A DNA stretch of 43,041 nt, from IMG/VR virus record IMGVR_UViG_3300045988_104271; one strand, given 5' to 3'. Shown here piece after piece: positions 4,325 to 32,484 of the stretch (the stretch's first letter is position 1; every line of letters begins with the position of its first letter). The translations under genes and the position numbers were made by a program. Source of the DNA: a virus. Under the pieces are notes generated by a model, which saw nothing but the letters and a program-made list of their open reading frames with translations, did no database searches and was not told the origin of the DNA.

Positions 4325-7300
4325 CTATCTCCACGGTGCTTCATCCAACGTGCTTTCCTTGTACCCGCAAGCAAGCCACAAAGCATCCTTCTGTGCTTTT
4401 GTAAGGCGTTGCTTGTTGATATAATCAGCGACCTTATCTCGTTTCGAGTTTCGTATGCTGTTCCCGTTCTTATCCTTATCAGCTTTCGCGCTTCCATTGA
4501 ACTTGTAAACATCATAAAACAGAGTTTTATCAATGTTCGCAGGCTTTGCATATTCAAAGTATTTTGCCGCAAGTGTTTCGGTACCGTCCTCAATGCTCGT
4601 GTCGTGGGCTTCGGGATAATCGCGCCAGAAGTCCCACTTTGTTATCATGGCTTCTGCATCGTCCATCTTATAGCCGCACCTCACCAGTATGCGCTTCGCG
4701 TCTCCGGCCTTTACCTCTCCGGCATCAAAATATTGCCTTACAGCAGCCCTAACGGTTTCGCGGGCTTTCTTGGTCGGGTCAGTTGTAGTATCGCGCTCCA
4801 CCATGGTCTTGAACTGTTTATCAAGCCGCGTGTAATCGCCCGTAGTTATAGCCTTATCTACGCCCTTGTATAATTCAAGCTCCTGCTTTACGCCAAGCCC
4901 TTCGCGTATCTCGTACATTATATTGCCGCTAAGTTCAGGTTCATTTCCGCTTATCGCTTTATAAGCTTCCTTGACTACGCCGAGCCAGTCCTTTATAAAC
5001 GCATCAAGCGGTATGCCGAACATTTGTGATGTAGCTTTTGCCATCCTCAGCAGACGCTCATCAAGTCCCTTTTTCTCATTGTCAAGGTCGCCAGCGGCGT
5101 TAATCAAGTCTTGTATAACCTTCAACTCAGAACGCGAAGAAGTATAGCCTTGTAACATTGACAATACTTCATTCACGAGTGGGAGTGAACCAAGAGTATC
5201 TAATTCGCCGCCAAGATAGATGTATTCGCCAATGTAAGGGACTTTCTTAAGCGGAGTGCCAACCAGATTGCCGACCAATGCTTCAACGTACTTGTCAACG
5301 TAGTTCTGGTTTTCATCATCATCGCGTATTGCGGTTATGACTGATTTCAGTATGGCGTTAAAAACGCCCGCGCCTATAATAGAAGCAGCAGTGCGCAGCA
5401 ATCTTGCCTTGCCGCCCTTCTCGTCCATGTGTTTCAGCGCGTACCAGTACATATTATAGCTTACCGTAGGCTCAGCCTTGAATGAGGTAAAAAGCTTAGC
5501 TCCCGCGCTCTTTGAGCGCATATACTCACTTCGGGATATCACGCTATCATACACCTGCGTATACTCTATGACATCATCAAACCTATGACCAACGGCCTTG
5601 TAGAACTCCTCGCTTCCGCGTTCAAAGGCGGTTGTGTCTGCTATTTCGTTTTCACACGCCTTCCATATCCTGCACCAAGTTATTTCGTCCATCTTCTGTG
5701 GCGCCCAGCCTGCAACGGCATCTCTGACATTCCTGAAATTGAGCTTGTTGTTGTCGGCCATCCATTGCACAAGCCCTTTGCCCGTGTAGGCATCGAAGCC
5801 GCCAACTTCCTTTATAACCGCTGTGCCGGAATACTTCTTAGCAGTATCGTATGTGTTCTTACTCACATGACCAAAGAAGTATTTAGGGTCTACCAACGCA
5901 GTAGCGCGGACAATCGCGGATGGCTGCTGTATTGCAACCGAGAGCTTACCCGAAATAGCATTGCGTCTGAATGCGGATATCATTTTGGAGGCCATACTGT
6001 CACGCGGGTCAACGGTAATATTTCCGCTGATATCATTGATAAAGGTCTTTATATACTTGCTCGTATGCTGACCGTATGCCTTGTCAAGCTCTGCCCTTAT
6101 ATAGGTATTCGCGCCGCCGTCCTCGCCCCACTGCTTGTAGTTATAAACTTTAGCCATAGTGTCTTGAGGTATTGCCATAGCGTTATATGTAGCCATATCC
6201 GCCATGTGCTGCAATGCCTTTTGTGTAATGCCGGTTATCACAATCGGGTTTCTTGCGCCTGCAACGGTATTCTTCGTGAAGCCCTTATTCATCCAGCTCA
6301 TGGCTTCGGGAACCCTGCCGTTAAAGGCGGTTTCAATGAACTGCCGAGCGGACATTATAGGAATGTAATAGCTTTCTGCAAAGCGGTTTATGCCATACAT
6401 CTGCATAGTAACCTCGTTGCCAAGCTCTGCGCCCTTGGTGCTCATAAGCTCCACCAGCGCATCAGCATACCCTTTCTGCTCCTTCGTAAGCCAATCGGAT
6501 ATCTCAGCTATGGTTTCCTCACTCAACGGCTTATTGACATTATCGTTTGTTGCCGTCTCTATAAGCTTACCGTTTTTCTGCACAACGTCTTTATTGAACA
6601 CAAAGCCATCTTTGGTTAGATGCTGAGTGCCTATAAGCTTTTCGCGCTTTGCGGTTGCATAGATATCAAGAGCCTGTTCCCTTGTAATGCTTACATTGCT
6701 GCCGCCCTTTATCTGGATGGTGAGCAAGTCGCCCGACTTGTCTGCCCATTCCTTGTAACGATATTTGTCCTTGATTTGCGCGTATTCCTCGCGTATGGCG
6801 TTTGCCGTAAGCGCAGCCTTATACGATGCCTGACGCACATCGTTGAACAAGGTTTTCATCTCTCCGCCTATGTTGTCGAAGAAGTATATGGGCTTGACGT
6901 TGCCTGAATTGAAAAATCCCGAAACAGCCGAAGCCATTTTATAAGCATAAGGGTGCTTGCGCATAAACTCGCGCGCCTTAGGCCGCTGCACTTGAGCCGT
7001 TTTGATTATGTTCCCGCCGATATCGTCTATATACTGCCGCCTGCCGTCCGCTATGACGGTGTTGGCGGTAGTGACGGTATGTTTTACCGCTGCAACGATA
7101 TTGTTCAGCTCCTTGAGTTTGTCTAAGGGCATATCGCTTATGTTGTTGTACTTGCTTGCGCTGTCCAACAGGCTTTGCATGTTGTCTATAAGGTCAGGGG
7201 CATATTCTATCAGCGGGTTATCAATATCGGGATTTGTCTTTGCCCTGTCCACCTGCTGCATCCACGTTTGCAGATTGCGCATAGCGTCCTTCCACATATA

Positions 7301-10300
7301 GCCTTTCTTGCCGTCAAACTCCAACGTTTTGAGCAGGTCAGCCGTCTTGTTGCGCAGGGCTTCCGGCACATGCTTACTGTTGTTGGGCTTGGTAAGCCAG
7401 CTATAGAGCGACTTGGCGTTCTTCTCTATGCTCGTCTTGTACTTGGTAATGTCCCTCTGGTCGCGCAGCTTCTCATACTTGGCCTTAGCCTGTTCCCTCT
7501 GCTGCTCCATGAGCGTGTTATACCGCGCCCGCTGCATTTCAAGCTTCTTCTGTTGCTTGTCGGCAAAAGTCTTGCGTTCAGGCATTGCCATATACTCGCC
7601 ATATAACCGCATAGCAAGGTCGGCGGCGTATTCCTTCATGCCGTAGCCATAGGGATTCTCTATTGGGCGGTCATACATATTCACCACTTCATCGTGTAAA
7701 AGTATAGGCATATCAACATCGGGAGTATCGGGGTCGAACGTGTCGGGGAACATGCCGGACAGGTCGCGCCACGCCTGTTCAAGGGATATGCCCTCGGTCT
7801 TAGAGAACTTAGCCTTGTTGTACAACTCCCGCCTAAATTCGGTGTATGAGCCGAAGGCGCTCTGCACTTCTGCAAGCTGCTTCTCGTTTAGCTTTATGGT
7901 GTTGTTTTTCAGAAACTCCCGCGCGGGCTTGGTGTTGTCGTACCACTCCGTGTTACGCTTGGAGGACTGGTCAAGCACGTTCAGGGCAATGTTCATTGCA
8001 CCAGCCTGTACCTCATCCCACACAACGTTCTCACCATTGCCTATGTAGTCAAACAGTTCGGTTATGTTGCTGACCAGTTCGGCCTTATCCATCTTACTGC
8101 TATATTCTTTCAGTAAACTGCCCGCCAATCGTTCAACAGCGGATGCTTTGACGTGGTGGCCGTCCGAAAGCTTTATTTCCTGTTTTGCGACTTCCAACGC
8201 TTGTTTCAGCTTGTCGTTCTGCTTTTGCAGCTTCTTAGCATCTTCAGGAGTGACGGATACATCATCCTTGCGGGAGAAACGGAAACGTTCGGTAAACTCA
8301 GAATTAAGTTTGCTCAATCGTTCACCTTCAACATCCGGATTATATGTTTCAACTGGAATACCACGGCTTTCAAGTGCGGTTTGTAAATCCTCGTACTTGC
8401 CCTCAGGCATAATAACTGCCCTAACTTCATCAAAGCTGACCGCTCGCTGGGGTTTGGCTTCAAAGTACTCCGTAGGCATCTTCGCAATATCCTGTGTTAG
8501 GGAAATAAGGCTGTCTACAATATCATAGGAGGCTTTATACACCTGAGGCCACTGATTCAGATAGTTGTATATGCCGGTTCGGGTTTTACGCAGAGCAACG
8601 GCTTCGCACAGCGTGTTCGCAGCATCCCACCAATCCTTGTTCCCCGCATAGGTATCAACAATTTCGCGGAACCTATTGCTGTAGGTTTCTTTTATCGCCG
8701 CATATTGTTCTTCGTTGAGAGTTTGCAGACGGCTGCTGTCAGCCTTGATATCTGCAATAGATTCGTATTCCCTTGCTGAAGAACCGAATATACTCTTTGT
8801 GCCAAGCCCAGAAGCTCCCTTTTCATCCTGCGACTTCATGGCCTTGACAATGTTCTCAAGATTAAACTCCCAGTATAGCGTTTCAAAGCTTCTGCGATTA
8901 CCGGAATTTGTAAACGTGTCTTTATCGTTGCGTATTCCTTTCTTTGAAACAATTCCAGAAAAAGTGTTTTCCAGCCATGCTTTGTATTCGGAAGGGTTTA
9001 CCGCTTCCTTAATCGCTTTCTGCGTTGCTGCAATGTCAGGTTGCGTCCTCACCATCCTTGGGCCATTCTGCATGTAACTGCGAACTTTGAGGGCATCTGT
9101 GAGAACATCGCCGCGGCTAAAACCGTCAGCAACAACAGACGCAGCGGCTTCGGAATCTATCCCAGCATCAATCAACTGTTGTTTAAGTGCCTCACGGTAC
9201 GATTCACCATATTTTTCATACCATGTTGCTCTGCTCTTGCCCGTGCCCATGGCTTCAAAAGCGTCCTTCCCAAGCTTATTCAGTATGAAGTCGTACCTTT
9301 CCTTTTCAGGCTCTCCGATTTCGGTTACAACTTCGCGCTGAATGGTCTCGATTGGCTGTTTACCTTGGTCAACAAGATAGGCTTGCATCATATCGGTGTT
9401 GTCGGCAAAACTCTTTACTATAGCCTGTTCGCTACCGCCATACCGCGCTATTGCTTCCCCGGCATCGTCTACACCGAAAGCATATAAGGGGTACGCAATA
9501 TCGCTTCCCGCCTTCTCATATACCTTGTAATACAAGTCTCTTAACCGTTTAATGCTTTTCTCGTTCGGTTTGTATCCAATTTGAGGGAATGTAGGCGTGT
9601 ATGCATCGGCATTATACACCTTGTTGCCGCTACGTTTTGGGTCAATCGTATCCTTGCCGAATATAAGCGATATATCTCCAAACTCGCTATGGCCAAGTTC
9701 GGGTTTTGTTATTGCTATTGATGGCATCGGGAATCCGCCAAGTTCGATATCTGCTTCAAGCTCGGCACCCTTCAGATTATGAACCGCTATAAGGTCGCGG
9801 GTTTCCTCGACAGTATCTTTCATAGAGAAACGAATATCTGGATTGTTGGGGTCAAACGTGCCTATGTTGTCCGTTGCACTCTTGATTTGGTTGCTGTTGA
9901 AAACGACTGTCTCTGTGTCAAGAATCAGACCGTCAAAGTCCGTCCCGTTGACTTCGTTGAACAGTTCCACCGCCGCCACCATGTCGCCGATTGCGGTCTG
10001 GTTCACATCATTCAGCATGGCAAAATCGTTCTTCCCGTACACATCTTTCAGTACGCTGTCAACTGTTGCACCGGATCCGTAGTTTTCCAGTCCGTAATCT
10101 TCGTTTTCCGCTACCGCTTCAAGGAAATTGCGCATCTGCTTCTTCGTAATGGTTCGCTCCTGCATAGGTACCGGATGTTTCACATCCAGATAATATGCAC
10201 GGGCATCTCCATATTGTCGGGCATGGCTTTCGCTGTCTGTGAAATAGAATCCACGGCCATACAGATTGGAATATTTGGATTTCTTCCGGTCAAAGATGTT

Positions 10301-13300
10301 GAACGTTTCATTTCCGCCACGATACATCACCTTCGGCGTTCCATCCGCATTAACTACCTTGCTGGCTTTCGCGGGATTGTTCTGCCAATCGCCGAACCAA
10401 CGCTTGAATTGTTGCGATTCTTCGACAGCATTTTTCATGGAAAAACGCACCTGCTTATCAAGTGGTTTGCCGAGATTCTCAAAATTGAGTTCATCTTCGC
10501 GCACAAGCAGGTCGCGTGCTTCTTTGGGGATTATGCCATCTTCGTACAGTTCATCGGCTATTCGCGCCCGTTCTTCGTCTCCGGTCGCATCAAGAAGCGG
10601 CTGTATTTCCTCACTCATGGGTATAACCACGGACGGCACATCTACACCAGCCTCCCGTGCGGCAAGTATTCTATGAGAGCCGGTCAGAGCCTGATATCCA
10701 TCGTTCCCGTTCTCAACAAGCACAACTCTGCGCCCATTGTAGCCGTTGTTCTCAAACTCGTTTATGAGGTAATGGTATTTGCTGCTGCTTGTAACTCTGT
10801 TGGGCGGCGTTATCTCCATCGGATTGACTTCTCGGATATCTGCGCCGCTATCTTTCGCAGAAAGCTTGACATTTCCATCCGATTTTTCCTTGTAATCAAA
10901 TACTTTTTGTAGTATACTAATTACGGAAGGTGTATCTGCGCTGGGAGCGCCGATTTTATTGGCCCCAGTCTTGAACGTAGATACGCCTTCTATTTTTATT
11001 TCGTGCAGATAGAAGTCATCGTTTATACTTTTCTTTCTGAGTATTACACCCTCTACAGCATTTTGCCCAGAAAAGACAACAGGTGCGGCAACAATGACCG
11101 TGTCATATCCGCGACCTTTCCAATTGTATTGAACATCAAGTATTTTACCCTTCTTTATAACATCAGGGACAGCAACAAATGCAGCAGCCTTATTTCTTCC
11201 TATACCGTGGGCTATATCATCCTTAACCCCGTTTCTGTCGAGAATTATTCGTCCAAGGTCTGGGCTTATAACTTCCCCACCAATTTCCTCAAAGAAATTT
11301 GAAACTTGCGTTATCAAGTCAACTTCGCCCTTTGCGAACTCAGTTCCCTTCACTTTAGCCACAGGCTGCATATTGGCTACGGCTCTATAATTCTTCTCAA
11401 TATCGACACTGCTTCCAAAATTGGGGTCAAGGCGCGGCGAAAAGCTAACTTTGCCATCTTCATTAGCCGCTTTACCCTTTGTCCCTTCCATCCCCTCAAA
11501 GTAATAATCGGCTATCATGTCAAGGGTCTGCTTGTTGTTGCGGATAAGCTCCATCTGTTCCCAGCTCTTTTGGCCTTTGAGAATGTTATATGCCTTATCC
11601 AGTATCGCACGAAGGTCTTTTATAAGCTGTTCAAACCACGCCCTGACCTTCCCGCTCGACTTCATAACTTTATCGGCAAAGCGTTTGCCCTGCTGCTCAT
11701 CGGTAAGGATAACAGGAACGGTGTTGGCTACCACTTCGGTAACGGCTTCGGAGCGGCTCAGGCCGTTCTTATCTATCTGGTACTGCACCATCTTTTCAAA
11801 CTCGGCCTTGGCTTCGTCAAACGTCATGCCCTTCTGGTTCATCAACTCGCCTTCGATAGCTGCTTCAACGACCTCAGACAGCGCGCTAAAGCCTTCTTTG
11901 TTCTTGACCTCCATCTCATGGATGCTCTCATGCGCGACAACGTAAGCATACGCCTGTCCAGTACTATCAAGCGAAAGGTGATAGGTGTCCGTCTTGGCGT
12001 CATAGTATGCGTTCGCATCACTCCTGCTGAACGTTACGCTGTTGCCGTCAGTGCCTATGGCATCGTGTATTACAAGTTTCTTCCCAGCGGCCTTGAACAC
12101 CTCGTCCAGCGCCCTTATCTGCTTGCGCTGTGAACTGGTGAGCTTCTGGTCTGAATATTCGCGGTTCACGCCCGCCTCGTACTCTGCCTTGGCTTGCGGC
12201 CTTACGTTGTTGCCCTGCTGTCCGGCAATGGAGTTTGCGCGGCTGGACTGATACGCGGCCTGTCCTGCACGGAATGCGGCCATTCTTGCGTTGTCGTTGA
12301 GATAATGACGCGCATACACGCTATCGCCTACGGCCTTTGCATATTCATAGCCCTGCTTACCGCTTAGATAAACGGAATTAAACCCACGGAGATAGTTATC
12401 AACGCTCGTTTCGCCCGTGTAGTTGTTTACCAATGCATTTGCCGTATTAGCATCGAAGGACGCGGCACGCTCATACAGCACGTTTATGTTCGGGTCGTCA
12501 AAGTCCACATCGGACAACTGCGCCGTAGTGCCATCGGAGAGCCTCACATTCAGGCCATTATCGGTATCGACTATGCTCCCTACGCTAACAGCATTGCCAT
12601 TGCTTGTAGTTGCCGTATGGCGCGTTGCAACGCCGTTCTGCGCGGTTTTAGCGGGTGCGGCGGCATTGTTGCTTGTCTGCCTTTCAAGAGGTCTCTGCGC
12701 GGCTTTTTCGGCGGCTTGTGCGGCGGCCTCCTGAATGTTCGTGGGCGGCTGTGTCTGCGCGGCCTTGGCCGCGGCTTCTGCAACGCGGTTTATATCCTCA
12801 TTAGCGGGAGTTCTGTTTACGGCGGCAGGAGGTTCTACTTCATTTCCGGCTACGCCCTGAGCGGCTTTACGTTGTATATCCACGGGAGATTGTTCCTGCA
12901 CGCTTTGCGCGGCTGTGCTTTCTCGCTGCATAGAATTGAGAGCAGCATTGAACTCCCGTTCCGCATATCTTGCTACGCCTATGTCGAGCGCAAGGTTGGG
13001 TGCTTCGAACAATCCTGCGGTGAGCGCGCCCATAAGACCGGAATAAAGCGCTTCCTCGTCAAGCGGGTTAAATTCGTTCTGTTCACCCGCTACTACGTTT
13101 TTGAACACAGGCTCAAGGAGGGATTGGAGGTATTCTTCCGTGGCTTCCGAGCCCATGTTTGCAATGTATCTGCCTATGGCATCAGTAACGCCTTTGTTCT
13201 TTATCACTTTGCCAAGCGCACGACTTATAGCACCGCCCGCAGCTTCTTCAGTTATACCAAGGCCAAGGCTGGATATACCACCAAGAACGGCTTGCAATCC

Positions 13301-14509
13301 GGCTTCGGACGCGCCAACAAGTGTACCATATGTAAGAGCTTGTTTGTGTGTATAACCGCTATCGCGGCCTTCTTTATAGGCATTGCCGCCAGCAGAAACA
13401 CCAAGCGTAGATGCGCCTAATGCTGAAGCAAGCTTCGAGGGAACATCAAGCCCGCCGAGGGCGGCAGACGCAGCAATCGACGGGAGCATATTGCCGCCAG
13501 TATAAGCAACATCGTTTATAGCCCCGCGCACTGGGTTTAATCCTTCCCTCCATGCCTTATACTCATACTGTAATGGAGAAGTTGGAACCATGGGGCCGTC
13601 AAATACACCACTAATAGCATTTGTCATACCGGCAAAAGCGTTATCAACACCGGCAACAAAAGGCAATATGCCGGCAGTTCCGACTTTTTTATTAAGACCA
13701 GCTTCCTTAGTGCCTATTCTATAATTCAGAGATTCTTGAAGAAGGCTTCTAAACTTTTCTGCTTCGCTATCTCCGCGTGTTCCAAGCAGGTAGTAATAAA
13801 TGTCGCGTTCATCGTCAGTCATTGCGTCAACGCTGGCTATCGTGTCGGCGCGTTGGAAGTCTTCTGCCTGTTTGCTCGTTATAATTGCATTTCCACTGCC
13901 CATGGCACCATTAAATATATCCCAAAAGCCCGGAGTGGATTCGCGTTCGCGTTTGTTGGCGGCTTCATATTTATGCTGCCCTACGGCTACTCCGCTTTTG
14001 AAGTCGCTCGCGCTAAAATACTTGCCGTAACCCGCTATTTCATTGTCTCTTTCCTGTAAGCGTTGTTTGCGCTCTGCTGCAAGCTTGTCCTTCCCCATCT
14101 GTACAGAAGCTTTTTCTGCCTGTCTGCGTTCGGTCAATTCTTTCTGCCAGTTCGGGTTATAGTAAGAACTGCGGGGATTGCGGGACTGTGGGGGTTGCGG
14201 TCTTTGCCGCCGACTGTTTGTGACATACGCATTGGCAGCGTTGCGGTAGTCCTCGGTGGTAAGAGTGGGGGACTGATTCTGCCGATATGCGCTTCCTTCT
14301 GGTGTAGAGCGCGAATACCGCTGAGATTCATATGTGCGGGGGATAGTGGATATTTCGTTTTTCTCCCGCAAGGACTGATAGGGGGTTTTGTCCCTGTATT
14401 TATAAGTCGCGCTGTTCGGGTCGTACCTCGCTGCTATTTCGCTTGCAAGGCGTTCCTTATCGTCCGCAACATTCTTACCGCTTTTCTTCGTGTTGTTGAG
14501 TTTTGCCAT
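4325..14509 (-). CDS. Giant 3,394-aa polyvalent virion/ejection protein (zincin, ParB-like and ART-like modules plus large uncharacterised domains)
   Basis: A single uninterrupted ORF of 10.2 kb. Recognisable modules are listed as separate entries. Recurrent (V/I)RFS(M/R)K linkers and Gly/Ala-rich hydrophobic segments occur at aa 280-500. Confidence 0.9.
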   Translation of the reverse strand: MAKLNNTKKSGKNVADDKERLASEIAARYDPNSATYKYRDKTPYQSLREKNEISTIPRTYESQRYSRSTPEGSAYRQNQSPTLTTEDYRNAANAYVTNSRRQRPQPPQSRNPRSSYYNPNWQKELTERRQAEKASVQMGKDKLAAERKQRLQERDNEIAGYGKYFSASDFKSGVAVGQHKYEAANKRERESTPGFWDIFNGAMGSGNAIITSKQAEDFQRADTIASVDAMTDDERDIYYYLLGTRGDSEAEKFRSLLQESLNYRIGTKEAGLNKKVGTAGILPFVAGVDNAFAGMTNAISGVFDGPMVPTSPLQYEYKAWREGLNPVRGAINDVAYTGGNMLPSIAASAALGGLDVPSKLASALGASTLGVSAGGNAYKEGRDSGYTHKQALTYGTLVGASEAGLQAVLGGISSLGLGITEEAAGGAISRALGKVIKNKGVTDAIGRYIANMGSEATEEYLQSLLEPVFKNVVAGEQNEFNPLDEEALYSGLMGALTAGLFEAPNLALDIGVARYAEREFNAALNSMQRESTAAQSVQEQSPVDIQRKAAQGVAGNEVEPPAAVNRTPANEDINRVAEAAAKAAQTQPPTNIQEAAAQAAEKAAQRPLERQTSNNAAAPAKTAQNGVATRHTATTSNGNAVSVGSIVDTDNGLNVRLSDGTTAQLSDVDFDDPNINVLYERAASFDANTANALVNNYTGETSVDNYLRGFNSVYLSGKQGYEYAKAVGDSVYARHYLNDNARMAAFRAGQAAYQSSRANSIAGQQGNNVRPQAKAEYEAGVNREYSDQKLTSSQRKQIRALDEVFKAAGKKLVIHDAIGTDGNSVTFSRSDANAYYDAKTDTYHLSLDSTGQAYAYVVAHESIHEMEVKNKEGFSALSEVVEAAIEGELMNQKGMTFDEAKAEFEKMVQYQIDKNGLSRSEAVTEVVANTVPVILTDEQQGKRFADKVMKSSGKVRAWFEQLIKDLRAILDKAYNILKGQKSWEQMELIRNNKQTLDMIADYYFEGMEGTKGKAANEDGKVSFSPRLDPNFGSSVDIEKNYRAVANMQPVAKVKGTEFAKGEVDLITQVSNFFEEIGGEVISPDLGRIILDRNGVKDDIAHGIGRNKAAAFVAVPDVIKKGKILDVQYNWKGRGYDTVIVAAPVVFSGQNAVEGVILRKKSINDDFYLHEIKIEGVSTFKTGANKIGAPSADTPSVISILQKVFDYKEKSDGNVKLSAKDSGADIREVNPMEITPPNRVTSSSKYHYLINEFENNGYNGRRVVLVENGNDGYQALTGSHRILAAREAGVDVPSVVIPMSEEIQPLLDATGDEERARIADELYEDGIIPKEARDLLVREDELNFENLGKPLDKQVRFSMKNAVEESQQFKRWFGDWQNNPAKASKVVNADGTPKVMYRGGNETFNIFDRKKSKYSNLYGRGFYFTDSESHARQYGDARAYYLDVKHPVPMQERTITKKQMRNFLEAVAENEDYGLENYGSGATVDSVLKDVYGKNDFAMLNDVNQTAIGDMVAAVELFNEVNGTDFDGLILDTETVVFNSNQIKSATDNIGTFDPNNPDIRFSMKDTVEETRDLIAVHNLKGAELEADIELGGFPMPSIAITKPELGHSEFGDISLIFGKDTIDPKRSGNKVYNADAYTPTFPQIGYKPNEKSIKRLRDLYYKVYEKAGSDIAYPLYAFGVDDAGEAIARYGGSEQAIVKSFADNTDMMQAYLVDQGKQPIETIQREVVTEIGEPEKERYDFILNKLGKDAFEAMGTGKSRATWYEKYGESYREALKQQLIDAGIDSEAAASVVADGFSRGDVLTDALKVRSYMQNGPRMVRTQPDIAATQKAIKEAVNPSEYKAWLENTFSGIVSKKGIRNDKDTFTNSGNRRSFETLYWEFNLENIVKAMKSQDEKGASGLGTKSIFGSSAREYESIADIKADSSRLQTLNEEQYAAIKETYSNRFREIVDTYAGNKDWWDAANTLCEAVALRKTRTGIYNYLNQWPQVYKASYDIVDSLISLTQDIAKMPTEYFEAKPQRAVSFDEVRAVIMPEGKYEDLQTALESRGIPVETYNPDVEGERLSKLNSEFTERFRFSRKDDVSVTPEDAKKLQKQNDKLKQALEVAKQEIKLSDGHHVKASAVERLAGSLLKEYSSKMDKAELVSNITELFDYIGNGENVVWDEVQAGAMNIALNVLDQSSKRNTEWYDNTKPAREFLKNNTIKLNEKQLAEVQSAFGSYTEFRRELYNKAKFSKTEGISLEQAWRDLSGMFPDTFDPDTPDVDMPILLHDEVVNMYDRPIENPYGYGMKEYAADLAMRLYGEYMAMPERKTFADKQQKKLEMQRARYNTLMEQQREQAKAKYEKLRDQRDITKYKTSIEKNAKSLYSWLTKPNNSKHVPEALRNKTADLLKTLEFDGKKGYMWKDAMRNLQTWMQQVDRAKTNPDIDNPLIEYAPDLIDNMQSLLDSASKYNNISDMPLDKLKELNNIVAAVKHTVTTANTVIADGRRQYIDDIGGNIIKTAQVQRPKAREFMRKHPYAYKMASAVSGFFNSGNVKPIYFFDNIGGEMKTLFNDVRQASYKAALTANAIREEYAQIKDKYRYKEWADKSGDLLTIQIKGGSNVSITREQALDIYATAKREKLIGTQHLTKDGFVFNKDVVQKNGKLIETATNDNVNKPLSEETIAEISDWLTKEQKGYADALVELMSTKGAELGNEVTMQMYGINRFAESYYIPIMSARQFIETAFNGRVPEAMSWMNKGFTKNTVAGARNPIVITGITQKALQHMADMATYNAMAIPQDTMAKVYNYKQWGEDGGANTYIRAELDKAYGQHTSKYIKTFINDISGNITVDPRDSMASKMISAFRRNAISGKLSVAIQQPSAIVRATALVDPKYFFGHVSKNTYDTAKKYSGTAVIKEVGGFDAYTGKGLVQWMADNNKLNFRNVRDAVAGWAPQKMDEITWCRIWKACENEIADTTAFERGSEEFYKAVGHRFDDVIEYTQVYDSVISRSEYMRSKSAGAKLFTSFKAEPTVSYNMYWYALKHMDEKGGKARLLRTAASIIGAGVFNAILKSVITAIRDDDENQNYVDKYVEALVGNLVGTPLKKVPYIGEYIYLGGELDTLGSLPLVNEVLSMLQGYTSSRSELKVIQDLINAAGDLDNEKKGLDERLLRMAKATSQMFGIPLDAFIKDWLGVVKEAYKAISGNEPELSGNIMYEIREGLGVKQELELYKGVDKAITTGDYTRLDKQFKTMVERDTTTDPTKKARETVRAAVRQYFDAGEVKAGDAKRILVRCGYKMDDAEAMITKWDFWRDYPEAHDTSIEDGTETLAAKYFEYAKPANIDKTLFYDVYKFNGSAKADKDKNGNSIRNSKRDKVADYINKQRLTKAQKDALWLACGYKESTLDEAPWR
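9830..10414 (-). other. ADP-ribosyltransferase-like module of the polyvalent-protein type (aa about 1366-1560)
   Basis: FKRWFGDW...KVMYRGG...GRGFYFTDS...AYYLDV...VVFNSNQIKSATDNIGTFD is the pattern I associate with ART-PolyVal domains. Confidence 0.55.
10610..10828 (-). other. ParB/sulfiredoxin-like nuclease-type domain (aa about 1228-1300)
   Basis: YQALTGSHRILAAREAGVDVPSVVI matches the ParB N-domain GxHR...G signature. Confidence 0.65.
11918..11932 (-). other. HExxH zincin metallopeptidase motif (aa 860-864, AHESIHEM)
   Basis: Motif read directly: VVAHESIHEM. Confidence 0.6.
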
Positions 14510-25883: not shown

Positions 25884-26996
25884 ATGAAGTACGATGTAAC
25901 ATTTTCCTGCGGACACACTGCAACTGTAAGCCTGTTTGGCCCCACCAAAGACCGCGAGCGCAAAATCAGTTGGTATGAGACGCACGGCGAATGCCCCGAA
26001 TGCTACCAGGCACGCAAACAGGCGGAGCGGGAAGAGGCCAACGCGCGGGCAGCGCTGGAAGCCGAAAAGAACCAGTGGCCGGAGCTGGTTGGGACACCGA
26101 AGCAAATTGCATGGGCGAATACAATCCGGAAAGAAAAAATAGATGAGCTAATGACGCTTGAGCCAACCGAGAAAGGAAAGCGCTACATAACTTGGATTGT
26201 ACAGACCTTCACCGCCGCGAAATACTGGATAGACCGCCGTGACGAATCATTGCGCTACGAATGGAAATGGGGACAAGACGTATTCAATGCTTACGAGGCA
26301 ACACGAAATAAGGAGGAAGCCATGAAGTACAAAATGGAGTATGCCTGCGGGCACACTACTACAGTAGACTGCACGATTGCAGAACGCGACCATATGCGCG
26401 AGCTGATAGGCCGCACATACTGCCCTGATTGCTGGGCAAAGCAAACCGCAACGGGGAAATTCACCGAGCTGCACCTGAGCCGTGCGGAACATGATGCAAA
26501 CTATTGGTCTTGCAAGATTAAGCCCGACAGCTACGACAGCAAAACCGACACCGTGGTGGTCAATGTGTTTAACGATTTGCTGGCCGAAAGAACCAAAATC
26601 GCCGAATTGGTGGCACAGAGCGCAACCATAGAGGGTATGGATGAGCTACGCGCAATCAGAAAGGTTTGGAGTGACTACAGAGCCGCCTTTAACCGTTGGC
26701 GCGAGGAAGGCTGTGAAGGCAATCCCCCAGCGGCTCCCGCCGTTGCTATCACGGACATAGCGGCAAAGTACCCTCGTGCGGCGGCATTTGTAGAAGCGGA
26801 AGATTTTTCGCGGGGAGCTGACGACACAGTATGTACCATGTGTCGCAAAGCAATGGAGAAAATCTTGCGCGGTGAGGACTACACAAAGGCTATCGAGGAA
26901 ATGCACCGAGAATGGAATAACTGGAACCCGCTTGAAGAAGCGCGCAAGTGGATACTGGCGGAGGGGCAGAAGAAATCAGCAGGAGGAACAGAATGA
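25884..26996 (+). CDS. Unknown 370-aa protein built from two paralogous zinc-ribbon-like modules
   Basis: MKYDVTFSCGHTATV...CPEC (aa 1-40) recurs as MKYKMEYACGHTTTV...CPDC (aa 147-186). The second copy keeps its own AGGAGG and ATG at 26322. Confidence 0.8.
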   Translation: MKYDVTFSCGHTATVSLFGPTKDRERKISWYETHGECPECYQARKQAEREEANARAALEAEKNQWPELVGTPKQIAWANTIRKEKIDELMTLEPTEKGKRYITWIVQTFTAAKYWIDRRDESLRYEWKWGQDVFNAYEATRNKEEAMKYKMEYACGHTTTVDCTIAERDHMRELIGRTYCPDCWAKQTATGKFTELHLSRAEHDANYWSCKIKPDSYDSKTDTVVVNVFNDLLAERTKIAELVAQSATIEGMDELRAIRKVWSDYRAAFNRWREEGCEGNPPAAPAVAITDIAAKYPRAAAFVEAEDFSRGADDTVCTMCRKAMEKILRGEDYTKAIEEMHREWNNWNPLEEARKWILAEGQKKSAGGTE

Positions 26997-27172
26997 GCAA
27001 GACCAGCACACAGGCCAAAACCCGGTGGAATACCGAGAACTATAAGCGGCTATCAATCTACATTGACAAAGAGGACGCGGAGCGGTACATAGCAAAGTGC
27101 GCAGCCGAGGGCAAGACACTAAGCGATATTCCCAAGCAGGCCATACTGAGCTACATAAACCAAAATTCATAA
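26993..27172 (+). CDS. Ribbon-helix-helix (CopG/Arc-like) DNA-binding protein, 59 aa
   Basis: KRLSIYIDKEDAERYIAKCAAEGKTLSDIPKQAILSYI fits a strand-helix-helix pattern. AGGAGG lies upstream, with an ATGA overlap to the upstream stop. Confidence 0.7.
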   Translation: MSKTSTQAKTRWNTENYKRLSIYIDKEDAERYIAKCAAEGKTLSDIPKQAILSYINQNS

Positions 27173-27215
27173 TGACGTGGAGGACAAGGGGCGGCAATGC
27201 CGCCCCAAAGGAGAG

Positions 27216-27244
27216 AAAAAAAGATGCGCTATTGCGCATCTTTT
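27216..27244 (-). terminator. Intrinsic terminator, strongest on the minus strand (stem AGATGCGC/GCGCATCT followed by T7)
   Basis: The plus strand reads A7-stem-TATT-stem-TTTT, so the minus strand has the stem followed by seven T. A second GC hairpin lies at 27188-27206. Confidence 0.7.
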
Positions 27245-27269
27245 CCGGTCTGAAAACCTAAAATCAAAT

Positions 27270-27362
27270 GTTTCAATCCACACCCGCAAGCGGGTGACAT
27301 GCGTCCCAGACGCAAAAACGTAAGAATAGATATTTCAATCCACATCCGTTGCCGGATGACAT
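27270..27362 (-). CRISPR. Orphan repeat-spacer-repeat unit with type I-C-like repeats (no cas genes in the genome)
   Basis: Repeats lie at 27270-27300 and 27332-27362 (62-nt period). The minus strand reads ATGTCACCCGCTTGCGGGTGTGGATTGAAAC and ATGTCATCCGGCAACGGATGTGGATTGAAAT. The GTGGATTGAAA(C/T) tail matches known I-C repeats, and the stem is kept by a compensatory change. Confidence 0.75.
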
Positions 27363-27366
27363 TATT

Positions 27367-27395
27367 AAAGTACCACAGCATCAGGCATATGTCAA
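27367..27395 (-). promoter_or_regulatory. Near-consensus promoter driving the repeat unit
   Basis: The minus strand reads TTGACA-TATGCCTGATGCTGTGG-TACTTT (17-nt spacer, extended TG). The predicted start falls about 27359-27362, at the first repeat. Confidence 0.7.
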
Positions 27396-27453
27396 GCATT
27401 TTGTAGAACAAAAAATAAAAAATGGTTCCCGCCAAATGCCCTATAAACTCCCT

Positions 27454-27483
27454 CCCCGCGCCCTGAGCGCGGGGCTTATTTTA
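27454..27483 (+). terminator. Plus-strand intrinsic terminator (CCCCGCGC-CCTGA-GCGCGGGG then CTTATTTTAT)
   Basis: An 8-bp GC stem followed by a T-rich tail. It insulates the repeat-unit promoter region from the next cassette. Confidence 0.65.
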
Positions 27484-27499
27484 TGCGAAAATTAAGACA

Positions 27500-32215: not shown

Positions 32216-32350
32216 ATGGCGAAGCTGACAAGAGCCGAATTTATCGCCCGCGCCGTGGCGGACAGAATGAAGGACAAACTGCGCGGGCAGAAAGAAGCGT
32301 ATTGGGTGCGGTCGGCACACATAGACGCAGAAAGGCGTAAGAAAAGATGA
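32216..32350 (+). CDS. Small basic protein (44 aa), absent from the ORF track
   Basis: GGGAGG lies 6 nt upstream of the ATG. I translated it by hand as MAKLTRAEFIARAVADRMKDKLRGQKEAYWVRSAHIDAERRKKR. Confidence 0.55.
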   Translation: MAKLTRAEFIARAVADRMKDKLRGQKEAYWVRSAHIDAERRKKR

Positions 32351-32484
32351 ACGTATGGTATATCGCATTATGGGTGTACATGCTGGCTGGCGAGGCTATA
32401 CTGCTGGCGATTGCCTTTGACATCTGCCGCAAGCAAGTTAAAAAAGCCCCGCAATCGGGGGAAAAGCGCACCCACAAGGCGTAA
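32347..32484 (+). CDS. Small single-pass membrane protein (45 aa), absent from the ORF track
   Basis: ATGA overlap with the previous ORF. Hand translation MNVWYIALWVYMLAGEAILLAIAFDICRKQVKKAPQSGEKRTHKA. Confidence 0.5.
   Translation: MNVWYIALWVYMLAGEAILLAIAFDICRKQVKKAPQSGEKRTHKA

Follow-up and report, generated by a model that had tools for sequence, protein, structure and literature searches.

What does a CRISPR-like repeat unit do in a phage in which no cas genes are found? The question arises from a short locus (27216–27395) in IMG/VR virus record IMGVR_UViG_3300045988_104271, a stretch of 43,041 nucleotides that we call the window. Here two repeats resembling those of type I-C CRISPR arrays lie, on the minus strand, between a promoter and a terminator. 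A first-pass annotation, made from the letters alone, had proposed that the unit yields either a CRISPR RNA (crRNA) directed at competing phages through a host I-C system, or a decoy that occupies such a system. Its general idea, an I-C-derived RNA that exploits or blocks host I-C, has held up, and an anti-CRISPR RNA role is still the best reading; its specific mechanisms survive only in part, and it overlooked the likely mimicry of the host Cas-regulating RNA (CreR) by two guides for the cas5 promoter. We consider it probable, from sequence comparison and by analogy with tested RNAs of this kind, that the locus is a two-guide type I-C viral ‘Cracr’, a copy of the host CreR. Cracrs are phage RNAs that copy host CreR or CreA, compete with crRNAs for Cas proteins and steer the effector to cas or toxin promoters, which it then represses (bioRxiv 10.1101/2024.10.29.618823).

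Derivation of the repeats and matches to a host promoter

Read on the minus strand, the cassette consists of a promoter, a first repeat (R1), a 33-nt segment (S1), a second repeat (R2), a tail of ~23 nt and a terminator. Both repeats read as I-C repeats from GTC and are 62 nt apart; the annotation, which had them at 27270–27300 and 27332–27362, placed them correctly, and the 6-bp stems with a compensated C:G to T:A change between R1 and R2 that it described are indeed present. A repeat search showed that the similarity between R1 and R2 extends 17 nt past each repeat, giving 48-nt units of 75% identity; the sequence after R2, which starts ATTTGATTTTAGGTTTTCAGACC, is therefore related to the 5′ portion of the ‘spacer’. 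This extension is the first sign that the ‘spacer’ is no ordinary spacer.

An Rfam scan of the window returned no family at gathering threshold; CRISPR-DR9 scored 24.9 bits for R2 and 13.9 bits for R1, both below its gathering score of 45. Genomes were then scanned, one per species, for the exact stem and tail, and genuine arrays were found that share the 6-bp stem base and the GTGGATTGAAA(C/T) tail. The R1-type stem occurs in an array of Lachnotalea sp. AF33-28, the closest real array (GTCATCCGTTGCGAAACGGATGTGGATTGAAAT), and the R2-type stem in arrays of Brevibacillus fluminis, several Phycisphaerae and Metarhizobium album. The B. fluminis array has the R2-identical stem CACCCG/CGGGTG and the same tail, and lies directly downstream of cas3-cas5c-cas8c-cas7-cas4-cas1c-cas2, genes that score above NCBIfam cut-offs (cas7 as Csd2), the truncated cas3 excepted. 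The Lachnotalea locus (L054) contains no cas genes within the fetched stretch and is of no use for typing. Both phage repeats have a 5′ GTC, a G+C-rich hairpin and a 3′ tail (U/A)GGAUUGAAA(C/U), which is also the tail of the array repeats of the phage's own hosts, described below; at 29 nt, as against 32–34 nt in real arrays, they are shorter, with a stem-loop reduced by 3–5 nt. These features indicate that R1 and R2 derive from type I-C repeats, as the annotation had proposed. Neither a prophage copy nor a host CreR with these repeats came out of the exact-stem scan, and the spacers of the Lachnotalea, Brevibacillus, Phycisphaerae and Metarhizobium arrays did not match the phage.

A metagenome scan with the S1 core identified at least 14 CRISPR arrays in bacteria, whose repeat is GTCGCTCCCCCTCGTGGGGAGCGTGGATTGAAAT; each holds a spacer such as GTTTTTGCGTCTGGGACGCATGTCACCCGCTTGCG, which spans the 3′ part of S1 and the first half of R2. 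Because the arrays were found through this match, no hot-spot claim is made for that protospacer. With up to 204 repeats the arrays are large, and 739 distinct spacers were obtained from 14 host I-C array loci. Of these, 300 match fetched phage loci at 85% or more; 81 distinct spacers match the window, cassette included, nine of them perfectly, and the commonest upstream triplet among these 81 is TTC (34 of 81). The host loci encode Cas3, Cas5d, Csd1 and Cas7 families, four of them with a full cas3-cas5-cas8c-cas7-cas4-cas1-cas2 operon. Repeats similar to the host repeat were found in the literature only for Roseburia hominis and Bifidobacterium. The spacer matches identify gut bacteria that carry type I-C systems as the hosts of this phage group.

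Seven spacer alleles, differing in length and sequence and drawn from the 14 host array loci, are directed at the cassette protospacer, and two of the seven match the window perfectly; we read them as several separate acquisitions at one protospacer. Its protospacer-adjacent motif (PAM) is TTC in most cassettes, TAC in the window and in two relatives (L167 and L175), and TTA in three other loci; we read the TAC and TTA changes as PAM escape. The spacer matches and the PAM changes thus argue that the phage group and its I-C hosts are in active conflict and that the cassette itself is targeted.

What the cassette resembles in these hosts is found between cas3 and cas5. A degenerate mini-array was present there in 28 host loci examined (29 parser hits, that in L184 being spurious), in a spacer of ~205–230 nt and on the strand opposite to the cas genes. 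It consists of a degenerate repeat GTCGAGTTTTGCCTCGGGGATTGAAA(T/C), a pseudo-spacer whose commonest allele is ATTTATTTTTATGTTTTAGC..., and a hairpin that starts with GTC and also closes cas3. One form has the degenerate repeat GTCGAGTTTTGCCTCGGGGATTGAAAT and, after it, the pseudo-spacer ATTTATTTTTATGTTTT, which recurs after TTC. Across the forms, the 17 nt of the pseudo-spacer recur ~90 nt away (site A) after a TTC or TTT PAM. The promoter in front of cas5 (TTGACA-17-TAATAT), which serves cas5-cas8c-cas7, has its −35 box TTGACA one base from this PAM. We call the layout CreR-like because the pseudo-spacer repeats at a PAM-flanked cas5-promoter site, as described for CreR; CreR has been reported in type I-C among other subtypes (bioRxiv 10.1101/2023.03.10.532045). 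Such hosts have what a Cracr presupposes, a CreR-like element with a PAM-flanked match at a cas promoter. Four site-A alleles were sampled, given here as PAM and target: TTC-ATTTATTTTTATGTTTT, TTC-ATTTGTCTTTATGTTTT, TTT-ATTTAACTTTATGTTTT and TTT-ATTTAGCTTTATGTTTT.

Behind each phage repeat, the first 17 nt represent an allele of host site A, and both phage segments after the handle conform to ATTT(G/A)(A/T/C)(T/C)TTT(A/T).GTTTT, varying at positions 5 to 7 as the host alleles do. Among relatives of the cassette (see below), tail ATTTAACTTTAGGTTTT agrees with host ATTTAACTTTATGTTTT at 16 of 17 positions and tail ATTTGACTTTAGGTTTT with host ATTTGTCTTTATGTTTT at 15 of 17, and in these best pairs tail and host differ only at positions 6 and 12. 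In type I Cascade, the bases at positions 6 and 12 are flipped out and unpaired. The S1 alleles ATTTGTCTTT... and ATTTAACTTT... equal host alleles over their first 10 nt and then differ at positions 11–12; the relatives thus have 10 contiguous matches where the Cracr preprint asks for at least nine PAM-proximal ones. In all pairs the matches end after position 17, giving the partial complementarity typical of the class. A different tail type, ATTATTTATCTTTGGTGGGG, agrees at 17 of 20 positions with a second site (site C) in the cas5 5′ untranslated region, ATTATTTATCATTGGTGTGT, whose PAM is TTC in one host allele but TAC in a second, and the tail of the relative L037 matches TTT-ATTATCGTTATG in other host loci. 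With tails matching two sites, some cassettes therefore carry one guide per side of the same promoter.

The window copy matches less well. Its S1 agrees with host ATTTATTTTTATGTTTT at 14 of 17 positions (mismatches 3, 8 and 12), as does its tail with the GTC allele (mismatches 6, 7 and 12) or the ATT allele (5, 6 and 12); the effective mismatches are one for the tail (position 5 or 7) and two for S1 (3 and 8). Even so, among ~86,000 window 17-mers only four reach 14 of 17 against a site-A allele, and two of the four are the segments after the repeat handles. Seeds starting ATTTGATTTT and ATCTA recur in many cassettes, and host alleles that match the window seeds probably exist beyond the four sampled; remaining exact-protein look-ups for host promoter alleles gave no new allele matching the window guides.

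The cassette family, its structure and its surroundings

The same promoter-to-terminator unit was found in 17 distinct cassettes at 31 loci, all human-gut, in IMG/VR and the metagenome scans. Promoter, repeats and terminator are conserved, and the guide alleles occur in different combinations in different cassettes. In the relative L026 there is just one repeat, an R1/R2 hybrid, ahead of tail and terminator; CreR is laid out in this way. The near-consensus promoter described by the annotation is present and is kept in all relatives, mostly as TTGAC(A/G)-17-TATTTT, though a simple consensus scan left the window promoter unflagged, because TACTTT matches TATAAT at only three of six positions. 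Read from the sequence, it sets the transcription start at the first base of R1 or beside it. Most relatives have flanking genes other than those of the window, and in MT835524.1 (L001 2500–3100, minus strand) a homologous promoter and upstream G+C hairpin (window 27390–27492) drive a protein gene; the position therefore acts as a slot for exchangeable cargo, and the cassette as a mobile unit. The protein that replaces the RNA cassette in MT835524.1, a related gut phage, is ~140 amino acids (aa) long and of unknown function.

The folded transcript forms the R1 hairpin, the small GCGTC/GACGC hairpin that the annotation had noticed, the R2 hairpin and the terminator, with an energy of −52.3 kcal/mol (z = −4.6; none of 200 shuffles as stable). 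The small hairpin (GCGTC-TGG-GACGC) lies within the 3′ 20 nt of S1, which are nearly invariant across the family, in addition to the 5′ 17 nt similar to host site A. The 13 aligned alleles retain both repeat hairpins and the small hairpin, for the most part without change; there are a few G–U changes and two C–A mismatches that break a stem, in L014 and L033. A consensus fold further pairs the R2 handle GG.UUGAAA with an anti-handle UUUCARRCC; the eight pairs are kept in 13 of 13 sequences, even behind the different, longer tail type, and the loop between handle and anti-handle varies in length and sequence. Two-sided covariation was found in neither the repeat-hairpin nor the anti-handle pairs of these 13 alleles, and the structural evidence is therefore one of conservation, not proof. 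The only open reading frame (ORF) across the locus (27229..27435, 68 aa), which the annotation described as low-complexity and without a ribosome-binding site, has no Pfam match, and its frame is broken in relatives by 1–2-nt indels in T runs. The features are collected in Table 1.

Table 1. Elements of the repeat cassette in the window, with positions numbered from the first letter of the window.
Feature	Position	Strand	Sequence and remarks
Promoter	27367..27395	−	TTGACA (27395..27390), 17-nt spacer with TGG end, TACTTT (27372..27367), 6 further bases before R1
R1, type I-C-like repeat	27332..27360	−	GTCATCCGGCAACGGATGTGGATTGAAAT; 6-bp stem, GCAA loop
S1 (candidate guide 1)	27299..27331	−	33 nt, ATCTATTCTTACGTTTTTGCGTCTGGGACGCAT
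R2, type I-C-like repeat	27270..27298	−	GTCACCCGCTTGCGGGTGTGGATTGAAAC; stem CACCCG/CGGGTG
Tail (candidate guide 2)	27253..27269	−	ATTTGATTTTAGGTTTT, immediately 3′ of the R2 handle; allele of host site A
Anti-handle	27247..27255	−	TTTCAGACC; predicted pairing with GG.UUGAAA of the repeat handle
Intrinsic terminator	27246..27217 by scan (27214..27246 with T run)	−	GGAAAAGATGCGC-AATA-GCGCATCTTTTTT and T run; the annotation had likewise put a terminator after the second repeat
Protospacer of host I-C spacers	27319..27285; PAM position 27322..27320	−	spacers in host arrays

The window is a temperate phage, with genes for small and large terminase, portal, capsid, YqaJ/RecT and integrase and with helix-turn-helix (HTH) repressor-like genes. 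Cas families were absent from the window ORFs tested, in which the families seen were capsid, portal, terminase, integrase, YqaJ, RecT and some of HTH or ribbon-helix-helix (RHH) type, and other tested ORFs gave no match; the annotation's picture of a self-contained transcription unit in a phage without cas genes thus agrees with the ORFs tested. The cassette is convergent with a small gene cluster common to the window and its relatives (window 25884–27172, plus strand; L006 10008–11642, minus strand), which contains a CxxC-repeat protein (PHROG 16123, unknown function). The window version also has an RHH-like protein of 74 aa, and the relatives have small acidic proteins and HTH proteins. The cluster resembles an anti-defence island, in which no known anti-CRISPR (Acr) or anti-CRISPR-associated (Aca) protein was identified: the proteins neighbouring the cassette gave no Acr or Aca assignment, only weak RHH similarity and a PHROG of unknown function. 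Elsewhere in the window, a single ORF of 3394 aa (4325–14509, minus strand) lies in the structural module and presumably encodes a giant tail or host-interaction protein. The host spacers that match the window concentrate at 27–32, 35–37 and 40–42 kb, with only one in the 25-kb structural module. This distribution suggests a mosaic phage, with structural genes that the phages met by these hosts do not share.

Two observations concern the host promoter region. Host loci were found in a form with CreR and the cas5 promoter (L177, L179, L187, L201–L205, L216–L230) and in a form with a cas3–cas5 gap of 21 nt (L184, L206–L215, L231–L242). In addition, site A has TTC where site C has TAC, and TTT where site C has TTC (host alleles, e.g. 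L179 5154–5240); such alternating PAMs could represent a host-side escape from phage guides.

Further repeat loci were encountered in the searches. Solitary I-C-like repeats GTCACCCGC...GCGGGTGTGGATTGAAAC stand just upstream of ordinary-looking genes in metagenome-assembled genomes of Planctomycetota (L048–L051, L055, L058–L060), and Paenibacillus aceti (L041) has one such solitary repeat with promoter-like and terminator-like flanks. In two unrelated gut viral contigs of IMG/VR, GTCACCCGGGAACGGGTGTGGATTGAAAT and GTCTCCCGGAAACGGGTGTGGATTGAAAC lie behind promoter-like boxes (L019 ~733–749 and L030 ~8499–8515), and these other solitary I-C-like repeats are possible further RNA anti-CRISPR units. 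A viral contig (L036 6461–8990 and L027, IMG/VR 3300044798) has a three-repeat array and two isolated full-length I-C repeats GTCACCCGCTTCACGCGGGTGTGGATTGAAAC.

Possible mechanism and competing readings

By analogy with CreR and with the tested I-E, I-F and V-A Cracrs, host Cas5c would cut the cassette RNA on the 3′ side of both repeat hairpins. Cut in the manner known for I-C repeats, R1 would leave its 3′ UGGAUUGAAAU as the 5′ handle of guide 1, and R2 would give guide 1 its 3′ hairpin and guide 2 its 5′ handle. Guide 1 would then comprise the 11-nt handle, S1 and the R2 hairpin (~62 nt), and guide 2 the handle, the tail and the terminator hairpin; the terminator, which would close an RNA of ~150 nt, may double as the 3′ hairpin of guide 2, a guide that has no downstream repeat and ends in the predicted anti-handle helix and the terminator. 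Both guides would load into host Cascade, displacing immune crRNAs, and carry it to the cas5 promoter, where 10–17 PAM-proximal base pairs should permit binding without Cas3 cleavage. A drop in effector synthesis would then shield the infecting phage or resident prophage from many matching host spacers.

Several observations weigh against this proposal. The window guides are seed-imperfect against all four host alleles sampled, and the window falls short of the nine PAM-proximal matches: its tail matches at positions 1–5 and is then mismatched at 6 and 7, and its S1 is mismatched at 3 and 8. In 28 of 57 host loci the cas3–cas5 gap is 21 nt, and CreR, promoter and target are all missing; loss of the regulator might render such a host insensitive to a phage mimic. 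The likeness of guide and target could also partly reflect descent from a captured host CreR. Finally, neither a Cracr nor a decoy explains the anti-handle helix or the near invariance of the 3′ 20 nt of S1.

These points lend some weight to a pure repeat decoy, in which the hairpins would do no more than sequester Cas5c and Cas7 in aberrant complexes, with no guide information in the flanks. The repeats retain a hairpin and the exact host-type handle, RacrIC1 is an experimentally validated solitary-repeat RNA of type I-C (PMC10651486), the window guides have seed mismatches, and in the half of host loci that lack the promoter target only competition could work. Nevertheless, we regard a pure decoy as unlikely: both repeats are followed by clear alleles of the CreR target, varying likewise at positions 5 to 7, which a decoy does not need, and competition for Cas proteins is already part of the Cracr model. 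A host CreR or array that was captured, now has no function and is decaying would account for the imperfect window guides and for the occasional stem mismatches in relatives (C–A in L014 and L033). This reading seems very improbable to us, given that promoter, hairpins, handles and terminator are conserved over 17 alleles in different phage backgrounds, that guide alleles are reshuffled, and that the host-targeted protospacer bears PAM-escape changes. The annotation's other proposal, a mini-CRISPR array for inter-phage warfare whose 33-nt spacer would guide host Cascade and Cas3 against a competing phage, has in its favour the repeat-spacer-repeat layout and the typical spacer length, and virus-borne mini-arrays against competing viruses are known. 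The search for spacer targets that the annotation had recommended came back empty, with no 33-nt protospacer for S1 in 2.9 million viral contigs (IMG/VR) or 50,697 phage records, and the near-invariant 3′ 20 nt occurred in IMG/VR only within 16 cassettes themselves. Likewise, the metagenome scan with the conserved S1 core gave only cassettes, host spacers and unrelated coding matches and no viral target, and TTC plus the commonest family seed gave 89 scattered chance matches in IMG/VR that do not extend. A crRNA against competing phages is thus not supported, S1 being inherited and conserved rather than turned over, and we attach next to no credence to it.

One candidate target lies within the phage itself. 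The site TTC-ATCTTTTCTTACG at 32351..32316 (minus strand) matches 12 of the first 13 nt of S1 behind a TTC PAM, at the stop/start overlap of two small early ORFs (32216–32350 and 32347–32484, plus strand), and such a match arose in none of 3000 Markov simulations of the window. S1 of window-type cassettes might accordingly send host Cascade to the phage's own early operon as a roadblock, the guide pairing with the non-template strand of the early genes. Co-variation of site and guide is absent, however: L155 has the same site with a different S1, L167 has a window-type S1 with an 11-of-13 site, and relatives lack such self-sites within the DNA available, all of which makes self-regulation highly doubtful. 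A related proposal has two separate parts, namely that guide 1 (ATCTATTCTTACG...) has been retargeted from the cas promoter to the own early operon and that the anti-handle is a new way of ending or masking a guide without a 3′ repeat; to the two jointly we would give only a slender chance. If the first part were true, the prophage would turn host Cascade into a programmable means of repressing its lytic genes.

We therefore return to the two-guide mimic of CreR as the probable reading. If correct, it would provide a natural type I-C case of a phage turning host CRISPR autoregulation on the host, in an abundant human-gut phage–host pair. Layers of this conflict can be followed in sequence: anti-phage spacers, CreR, the proposed two-guide mimic, spacers against the mimic, changes at the PAM position, and loss of regulator and target in some hosts. 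The family supplies ready allele pairs for testing type I-C Cracrs, and the short repeats and repeat-less second guide could inform compact guide designs for I-C tools.

Comparison with known systems

A virus-borne mini-array shares with the cassette a repeat-spacer-repeat arrangement without cas genes; the spacer here differs in having no viral target and in being conserved across relatives instead of variable. By the rules of SRUFinder, full repeat matches within 100 bp are clustered as arrays, and a mini-array is called only if a nearby partial match is at least 90% identical (PMC10651486); the identity of R1 and R2 lies below this limit. Like the Racrs, exemplified by RacrIC1 (Camara-Wilpert et al., 2023; PMC10651486), the cassette would produce a phage small RNA that mimics a type I-C repeat, from its own transcription unit and in a phage in which no cas genes were found. 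Racrs, however, are single repeats that act by sequestration alone, whereas this unit has guides matched to a host promoter and two repeats 62 nt apart; one relative, L026, has a single hybrid repeat.

Host CreR and the phage element share the handle GGATTGAAA(C/T), the guide motif ATTT..(T/C)TTTA.GTTTT, an own promoter ~7 nt upstream of the repeat, a hairpin after the guide, and a 17-nt partial complementarity to a PAM-flanked site at the effector-gene promoter. CreR differs in lying within the cas locus, between cas3 and cas5, and in being autoregulatory, whereas its phage counterpart occupies a moron-like slot in a temperate phage and has two guides, with repeat hairpins better formed than the degenerate repeat of the host.

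With Cracrs the cassette has in common a location in a phage and outside any CRISPR-Cas locus (the window is temperate, with no Cas among the ORFs tested), degenerate repeats and short guides. In relatives the guides copy the PAM-proximal part of a host CreR pseudo-spacer or of a cas-promoter site, and there are two guides per transcription unit. Type I-C Cracrs, including nine two-spacer arrays, are predictions only in the work of Liu et al., whose tested cases are of types V-A, I-E and I-F (bioRxiv 10.1101/2024.10.29.618823). The cassette departs from these in its second guide, which ends in an anti-handle helix and terminator in place of a downstream repeat, and the window copy departs further in its seed mismatches to all sampled host alleles. 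With that strict-criterion caveat for the window copy, the cassette is best filed as a well-contextualised further member of the Cracr class.

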